A stretch of 11,111 bases of DNA from a virus (lineage: Duplodnaviria > Heunggongvirae > Uroviricota > Caudoviricetes), in IMG/VR virus record IMGVR_UViG_2563366932_000013; one strand, given 5' to 3'. The position numbers and the translations under genes were made by a program. Position 1 is the stretch's first letter; the number at the start of each line of letters is the position of its first letter. Under the pieces are notes generated by a model, which worked only from the letters and a program-made list of their open reading frames with translations, ran no database searches and was not told where the DNA came from. Below are positions 5,583-6,832 of the stretch, piece by piece.

Positions 5583-5654
5583 TGAAGTGGTTTACTGAAT
5601 TTGGCCACCTGAACAGAGGTGATATGCTCACCTCAGAACAACACAGGTGCCATA

Positions 5655-5957
5655 ATGAAAAAAAGAAATTTCAGCGCAGAGTTTAAACGCGAATCCGCTC
5701 AACTGGTCGTTGACCAGAATTACACCGTGGCAGATGCAGCCAGCGCTATGGATGTCGGCCTTTCCACAATGACGCGATGGGTGAAACAATTACGTGATGA
5801 GCGGCAGGGAAAAACACCAAAAGCCTCCCCTATTACCCCGGAACAAATTGAAATCCGTGAGCTCAGGAAAAAGCTACAACGTATTGAAATGGAAAATGAA
5901 ATATTAAAAAAGGCTACCGCGCTCTTGATGTCAGACTCCCTGAACAGTTCTCGATAA
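5655..5957 (+). CDS. IS911 OrfA (HTH / leucine-zipper N-terminal transposase component)
   Basis: ATG at 5655 preceded by AGGTG, stop TAA at 5955-5957. The track ORF starting at 5619 extends upstream through a non-ATG start. Confidence 0.85.
5906..5912 (+). other. Programmed -1 ribosomal frameshift heptamer A-AAA-AAG linking orfA to orfB
   Basis: AAAAAAG sits in the OrfA zero frame as ttA AAA AAG (codons L-K-K of ...EILKK). The -1 frame continues KKGYRALDV... into the OrfB frame (track ORF 5984..6802 is in the -1 frame relative to OrfA). Confidence 0.75.
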
Positions 5958-5983
5958 TCGGGAAACTCAGGGCGCGTTATCCT

Positions 5984-6802
5984 GTGGCCACTCTCTGCCA
6001 TGTGTTCGGGGTCCATCGCAGCAGCTACAAATACTGGAAAAACCGTCCTGAAAAGCCAGACGGCAGACGGGCTGTATTACGCAGCCAGGTACTTGAACTG
6101 CATGGCATCAGCCACGGCTCTGCCGGAGCAAGAAGCATCGCCACAATGGCAACCCAGAGAGGCTACCAGATGGGGCGCTGGCTTGCTGGCAGACTCATGA
6201 AAGAGCTGGGGCTGGTCAGCTGTCAGCAGCCGACTTACCGGTATAAACGTGGTGGTCATGAACATGTTGCTATCCCTAACTACCTTGAACGGCAGTTCGC
6301 CGTGACCGAGCCAAATCAGGTGTGGTGCGGTGATGTGACCTATATCTGGACGGGTAAGCGCTGGGCGTACCTCGCCGTTGTTCTCGACCTGTTCGCAAGA
6401 AAACCAGTGGGCTGGGCCATGTCGTTCTCGCCGGACAGCAGGCTTACCATGAAAGCACTGGAAATGGCATGGGAAACCCGTGGTAAGCCCGTCGGGGTGA
6501 TGTTCCACAGCGATCAAGGCAGTCATTATACGAGCAGGCAGTTCCGGCAGTTACTGTGGAGATACCGGATCAGGCAGAGTATGAGTCGGCGTGGAAACTG
6601 CTGGGATAACAGCCCAATGGAGCGCTTCTTCAGGAGTCTGAAGAACGAATGGGTGCCGGCGACGGGCTATGTAAGCTTCAGCGATGCAGCTCACGCAATA
6701 ACGGACTATATCGTTGGATATTACAGCGCACTAAGACCGCACGAATATAATGGTGGGTTACCACCAAACGAATCGGAAAATCGATACTGGAAAAAACTCT
6801 AA
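5984..6802 (+). CDS. IS911 OrfB (DDE catalytic domain), normally made as an OrfAB fusion by -1 frameshifting
   Basis: 272-aa ORF in the -1 frame relative to orfA. Contains IS3-family integrase-core-like stretches (e.g. [44 protein letters not shown]). The coordinate given is the first in-frame start in the track; the fusion begins at the slippery site. Confidence 0.85.
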
Positions 6803-6832
6803 CTCGGTGGCCAGTTTTTGTTGACCACTTCA

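Follow-up and report, generated by a model that had tools for sequence, protein, structure and literature searches.

An ISEc52 copy as the highly probable scar of a 30-kb deletion in a CUS-3-type prophage

We analyzed an 11,111-nucleotide stretch of DNA (“the window”), which is the whole element between argW (tRNA-Arg) and dsdC, and conclude that the insertion sequence (IS) within it is, with high probability, the scar of an IS-mediated deletion that took 30,081 bp out of an argW-integrated prophage of the CUS-3 type (P22-like). The deletion extends from inside the antirepressor gene ant to the base before the start codon of cIII. This reading rests decisively on the flanks of the IS being non-contiguous in an intact relative and on the lack of any IS-free fusion of these flanks in 5,426 complete E. 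coli genomes. The loss accounts for the survival of just the ends of CUS-3 in this K1 lineage. The ISEc52/IS911 group, CUS-3 and IS-mediated prophage deletion without target duplication are all well known, and the present case is a routine, textbook instance of IS-driven prophage decay, a kind of event already known; no paper on this specific deletion came up in a literature search combining CUS-3 and IS911.

Identity of the insertion sequence and its flanks

The element at 5583..6832 (+ strand) is an intact, complete IS3-family insertion sequence of 1,250 bp, ISEc52 by RefSeq naming, a close relative of IS911. Its tips read TGAAGTGG... from 5583 and ...CCACTTCA to 6832. A scan of the window detected imperfect terminal inverted repeats at 5581-5609 and 6806-6834, of which approximately 5583-5609 and 6806-6832 belong to the IS proper; inverted repeats ending in TG...CA and a length within ~1.2-1.5 kb are both features of the IS3 family. 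So is the coding content. The first frame, orfA (5655-5957, + strand, 100 aa), matches HTH_Tnp_1 (E 6e-14); orfB, in the -1 frame of the same strand and ending at 6802, matches the DDE domain rve (E 1e-31); and the NCBIfam IS3 transposase model NF033516 matches the IS at E 3.8e-90. A slippery heptamer, A AAA AAG, lies at 5906-5912 in the frame of orfA, completing the family arrangement of an HTH-containing orfA and a DDE/rve orfB in 0/-1 frames. The length of 1,250 bp, the tips, the 0/-1 frames of orfA/orfB and the A AAA AAG site are all shared with IS911/ISEc52.

The preliminary description of this DNA had named the element IS911, which holds as a statement of close relationship but probably not as the exact name. 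Over 1,250 bp, the window copy shares 94.2% identity with an “IS911 family” copy (RefSeq label) from a Shigella dysenteriae plasmid; with a partial IS911-labelled copy, identity is 95.6% over 917 bp. Identity to RefSeq copies labelled ISEc52 is 97-100%, with 100% copies among them, and the same copy in E. coli CEA212U is named “IS3-like element ISEc52 family transposase” in RefSeq. The annotation should accordingly read ISEc52.

Other copies fix the ends of the element. Identical 1,250-bp copies occur in other contexts (HM50, PE144, 19AR0253, fucP and a second lambdoid prophage), and copies with 1-2 base differences are found in fliD, in djlC and beside an alpha-galactosidase gene (n = 3). As all compared copies part from the window exactly beyond 5583 and 6832, the IS ends are known to the base. 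Comparison with an intact, IS-free prophage (APEC E16002, discussed below) places the breakpoints at the same bases. The window copy is presumably active.

Two other complete chromosomes with the same junctions differ from the window within homopolymers of the IS. In one (locus L016, GCA_024546725.1), IS position 323 (window 5905) has A7 for A6, giving a fused 389-aa OrfAB, and in the other (locus L017) the start of orfA is one A shorter; both differences are probably sequencing errors. A fused OrfAB would be a hyperactive transposase.

The 3-bp sequences bordering the IS are GAT (5580-5582) on the left versus ATG (6833-6835) on the right, and there is no 3-bp target duplication. Target duplications of 3-4 bp typify simple insertions in the IS3 family, and those of IS911/ISEc52, which move by copy-out-paste-in, are of 3 bp, whereas the window copy has no such duplication because it sits at a deletion junction; this is what is expected of a copy in that position, and its membership in the IS3 family is unharmed. 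However, the dinucleotide AT is common to both flanks and touches the IS on either side (5581-5582 and 6833-6834), and a 2-bp duplication is thus formally present. Among five simple insertions of identical or near-identical ISEc52 copies elsewhere, four carry a 3-bp duplication (tat, acg, ata, aac) and one a 2-bp duplication. In djlC of NCTC9967 (locus L012, 311-1560), ISEc52 is flanked by GAT|ATG, the same as in the window. This djlC copy arose by simple insertion and duplicated the 2 bp AT, since the frame of djlC is recovered only when 2 bp are taken out. The difference between GAT and ATG, on which the preliminary description had based its case for a deletion, therefore stands as an observation but loses its decisiveness: because AT is shared and ISEc52 can duplicate 2 bp, the absence of a 3-bp duplication is suggestive and not decisive on its own.

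The interval between ant and cIII

An intact CUS-3-like prophage occupies the same argW locus in APEC E16002. Both flanks of the window are > 99.9% identical to it, and the two breakpoints lie 30,081 bp apart there, i.e., the sequences that border the IS in the window are non-contiguous in this IS-free relative. The left breakpoint falls after 5582, within ant. The window retains the last 209 nt of this gene as a 3' stub (5374..5582, - strand) with a match to the Pfam family P22_AR_C, and lacks its 5' 694 nt; the intact 903-nt ant of APEC E16002 reads ...CCGGAT|ACAGTTCGC across the breakpoint. In other words, the left flank of the IS ends in ...GCGCCGGAT, where the intact prophage goes on with ACAGTTCGC. 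The right flank begins with ATGCAACAG, which in the intact prophage is immediately preceded by ...AAGGAGCATCCT, and the ATG at 6833 of the cIII-family gene touches the IS end.

The missing interval holds ~45 genes in APEC E16002. These comprise two small pL-operon genes upstream of cIII; a LexA-type repressor, cro and cII; a replication protein and a helicase; the nin region, Q and the lysis genes; the terminase, portal, scaffold and capsid genes along with those for the head-completion and ejection proteins; and the gene for a YafO toxin, the arc/mnt-type genes of immI and the 5' 694 nt of ant. The complete set of immunity, replication, lysis and morphogenesis modules is thus absent from the window and present in the interval. 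The main points of the preliminary description are borne out by this comparison: it had placed the IS at a junction where the center of a prophage was removed, with the 3' stub of a gene upstream of the tailspike on one side (which proves to be ant) and the first codon of cIII on the other (cIII by its PHROG profile, phrog_550, only), and had listed structural, lysis, late regulator, replication and immunity genes as missing. The checks it had proposed, i.e., fixing the IS ends to the base and looking for an intact prophage at the same locus in related strains, gave the results described above.

The same comparison ties the window to CUS-3 of E. coli K1 (CP000711.1). Window positions 1-5582 are 98.9% identical to CUS-3 and 100% identical to many K1 strains, and the two have in common the integration at argW, intS, neuO with its heptad repeats and the endosialidase tailspike. 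The difference is that the window is without the 30,081 bp and ~45 genes between ant and cIII, which makes it a defective remnant.

A simple insertion of the IS into an element that had already been reduced would leave flanks that are contiguous in some IS-free relative. An IS-free fusion of ant and cIII would read ...GCGCCGGATGCAACAGTTCGC..., and when a synthetic 120-nt query for this junction was compared to 5,426 complete E. coli genomes, no record was covered to 80% or more. Because no IS-free genome joins both flanks, simple insertion into a reduced element is very unlikely. A specific version of this history would have an IS-independent deletion between two AT dinucleotides, followed by an ISEc52 insertion that hit the junction and duplicated AT. 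It accounts for the AT on either side of the IS, and the 2-bp AT duplication by ISEc52 in djlC is a documented precedent. However, the IS would have had to strike the exact junction base in a remnant of ~10 kb, the IS-free fusion is found in 0 of the 5,426 genomes, and the precise junction of three further CUS-3 deletions is likewise occupied by an IS, a pattern that implicates the IS as causal. We consider such a prior deletion highly improbable.

The junction itself is found repeatedly. Both of its sides are contiguous in three complete chromosomes from independent projects (CEA212U and those of loci L016 and L017). In RefSeq, the left side appears as an 85-aa “P22AR C-terminal domain-containing protein” (5374-5631, - strand) with a GTG start 49 nt inside the IS. 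This open reading frame, which runs from the IS into ant, is a junction artefact, the 3' stub of ant read from within the IS, and should be annotated as such. Fourteen contigs, drawn from at least 10 NCBI assemblies, contain it, and every one of them that reaches the right side carries the same right junction; the deletion has become fixed in the clone to which these assemblies belong. Carriers of the left junction include GCA_024546725.1, GCA_046581175.1, GCA_050051655.1, GCA_019402265.1, the GCA_003570xxx series and CEA212U. An assembly artefact, in which contigs were misjoined via the repeated IS, could be imagined, as such elements are multicopy and short-read contigs break within this one. 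The complete assemblies that hold both junctions contiguously, together with the at least 10 assemblies that hold the left one, rule against it and leave it a negligible probability.

Routes to the deletion

Within the IS-mediated reading, the most economical is a two-step route that would have begun with an ISEc52 insertion, placed in ant with duplication of GAT or immediately before cIII with duplication of ATG. A transposase-driven intramolecular adjacent deletion would then have proceeded from one IS end to the other breakpoint. We put the chance of this sub-mechanism at about even. It is favored because it involves two events and not the three of recombination between copies, and because prophages with a single ISEc52 in ant exist: HM50 (locus L002, 13632-14881) carries a simple ISEc52 insertion in ant in a prophage that is otherwise intact, as do two other strains. 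It is also favored by the behavior of IS150, likewise of the IS3 family, in the E. coli long-term evolution experiment, where none of 14 IS150-associated deletions had a duplication and each was traced to an earlier insertion followed by an adjacent deletion (PMC11708052). Those deletions resemble the present one in having an IS at the junction, tens of kb gone and no target duplication (PMC11708052). They differ in that earlier time points revealed the insertion that came first, whereas here we infer the stepwise path.

Adjacent deletion should preserve one original junction, and recombination between IS copies one junction of each copy. The ancestor that adjacent deletion calls for, with ISEc52 at one breakpoint only, was sought in several collections. 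No such ancestor was found among complete E. coli genomes with a synthetic 240-nt query, or among the contigs carrying the 85-aa junction reading frame; exact 26-mers gave 0 matches in metagenome contigs, and the left junction gave 0 matches in species-representative genomes. As no ancestor with ISEc52 at a single breakpoint was found, it is from the evidence above that we infer the order of events and the sub-mechanism.

Recombination could have led to the same end. If two copies of ISEc52 in the same orientation had been present, one in ant (with GAT) and one before cIII (with ATG), RecA-dependent recombination between them would have looped out the 30 kb along with one IS. We regard this as a serious rival, though somewhat less probable than adjacent deletion. 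It yields the exact product observed, i.e., one IS with half of each duplication. ISEc52 is also multicopy, in up to 24 places per genome, which supports the scenario, and two IS copies within one prophage are known from FDAARGOS_1302. A further argument comes from the target sequences: ACAGTTCGC follows both breakpoints and AACAG-like strings stand at other insertions, and both sites may therefore be genuine targets. Against this, recombination needs three events versus two, and no genome was found with ISEc52 at either site.

On the deleted side of ant, the left breakpoint is followed by the 9-mer ACAGTTCGC (locus L007, 7125-7133), which occurs again 5 bp into the retained cIII flank (window 6838-6846); strings similar to AACAG also stand after several of the other ISEc52 insertions. 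This recurrence may reflect a target preference or chance.

In complete genomes, independent IS-bounded losses of the CUS-3 center number at least four besides the present one, and IS-bounded CUS-3 architectures at least five; int and neuO are kept in all of them. In 19AR0253 and 19AR1321, an ISEc52 copy bounds a deletion of 29,877 bp from ant to the 3' end of cIII, with flanks taa/caa, and in PE144 an ISEc52 copy bounds one from an injection-protein gene to near torI, with flanks gtt/cta. These independent deletions with other breakpoints and no duplications count as support for the IS-mediated reading. The ISEc52 copies of these two deletions (6433-7682 of locus L008 and 12747-13996 of locus L005) are identical to that of the window and in the same orientation. 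A different IS3-family element is found with a truncated tailspike gene in N63 and, in two copies, in FDAARGOS_1302 (5810-7023 of locus L004; 5509-6722 and 10908-12121 of locus L003).

A one-step event, in which a copy of ISEc52 was taken up at a DNA break as the deletion arose, with no target duplication, has also been weighed. This mechanism was proposed for some cases of an IS combined with a rearrangement (PMC11708052). Neither junction is found alone in any genome, and the three ISEc52-bounded CUS-3 deletions have no junction in common, both of which agree with it. However, 14 of 14 IS150 cases were explained as stepwise adjacent deletions (PMC11708052), and missing ancestors are weak evidence given the sampling. 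We judge a one-step capture very unlikely.

The HM50 insertion was considered as a direct precursor of the window and rejected. It lies at approximately window position 5559, 23 bp to the left of the window breakpoint, and the 23 bp that stand to the left of the IS in the window stand to the right of the IS in HM50. Its flanks, atc/att, form a near-perfect 3-bp duplication. The right IS end in HM50 is followed by AT and then by TGAATTTGTTTT; of its 12 positions, 9 agree with the left IS tip TGAAGTGGTTTA. IS911 performs targeted insertion next to sequences that resemble IS ends, and the HM50 site has the appearance of such an event.

It has to be asked whether the repeated IS-bounded losses from CUS-3 reflect, instead of neutral decay, selection to lock in the phase-variable neuO and to shed lytic potential, with ISEc52 as the preferred tool. 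We think this unlikely. As part of such a reading, IS-end-like target sequences in ant could perhaps aid ISEc52.

Content of the remnant and continued phase variation

The window is 100% identical to E. coli CEA212U except that CEA212U has ten fewer neuO heptads. The RefSeq annotation of this identical locus could therefore be used for the window, with CEA212U coordinates equal to window positions shifted by 5,930. At the left end, the integrase gene intS (1..1158, + strand) adjoins attL in argW, just beyond the window, and its region is 98.9% identical to the int region of CUS-3. Next is neuO, for the polysialic acid O-acetyltransferase (1398..2174, - strand), which the CUS-3 record annotates with a heptanucleotide repeat; in the window there are 18 GAGTCTT heptads at 2044-2169, a number divisible by three, and the reading frame is open throughout. 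The endosialidase tailspike gene (2328..5273, - strand) is intact and encodes 981 aa, with Pfam End_* families assigned to the identical product. An Rfam scan of the window gave no matches.

To the right of the IS, the 56-aa product of 6833..7003 (+ strand) probably belongs to the lambda CIII family, on the strength of its PHROG profile and synteny. It matches phrog_550 (E 1e-22), which is also the PHROG of a PGAP-annotated CIII, and its gene sits upstream of erf, as in the intact prophage. No Pfam or NCBIfam model matched it, and BLASTP gave no similarity between it and the PGAP-annotated CIII. The intact prophage encodes the same protein (WP_001183771.1) and has aaggagcatcct ahead of the gene; in the window, the Shine-Dalgarno sequence (AAGGAG) and the upstream promoter region are both deleted, and a consensus scan of the right junction revealed no hybrid outward promoter spanning it. 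A mosaic boundary lies near 7000, where many phage matches begin. At the position of the window's cIII module (6833-7000), N63 has a cIII/kil module (locus L004, 8132-8400), and the two share no similarity at the DNA level.

The early-left region that follows (7260..10853, + strand) is annotated at the identical locus in RefSeq with erf, the anti-RecBCD gene abc2, ea-type genes and an ASCH-domain gene, and is similar to Sf6, HK620 and HK633. The last gene, torI (10911..11111, + strand; RefSeq, CEA212U), is of the excisionase type and adjoins attR. A 17-bp repeat, CTGCAGGGGACACCATT, occurs in CEA212U at the 3' end of the tRNA-Arg gene (locus L001, 5825-5841) and again 74 bp beyond torI (17115-17131). 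We presume this repeat to be the attL/attR core; as it persists at both ends, the remnant may still be excisable.

The remnant thus keeps int, torI/xis, both att sites, neuO and the endosialidase tailspike. With the genes for the repressor, replication, lysis and the virion all gone, it should be non-inducible and unable to propagate. The retention of neuO in a non-productive remnant implies that phase variation of capsule O-acetylation persists without phage production. In the assemblies with the same junction (loci L016-L025), the neuO heptads number 8, 10, 10, 11, 13, 14, 18, 22 and 23, and this variation from 8 to 23 indicates that neuO phase variation continues in the defective remnant.
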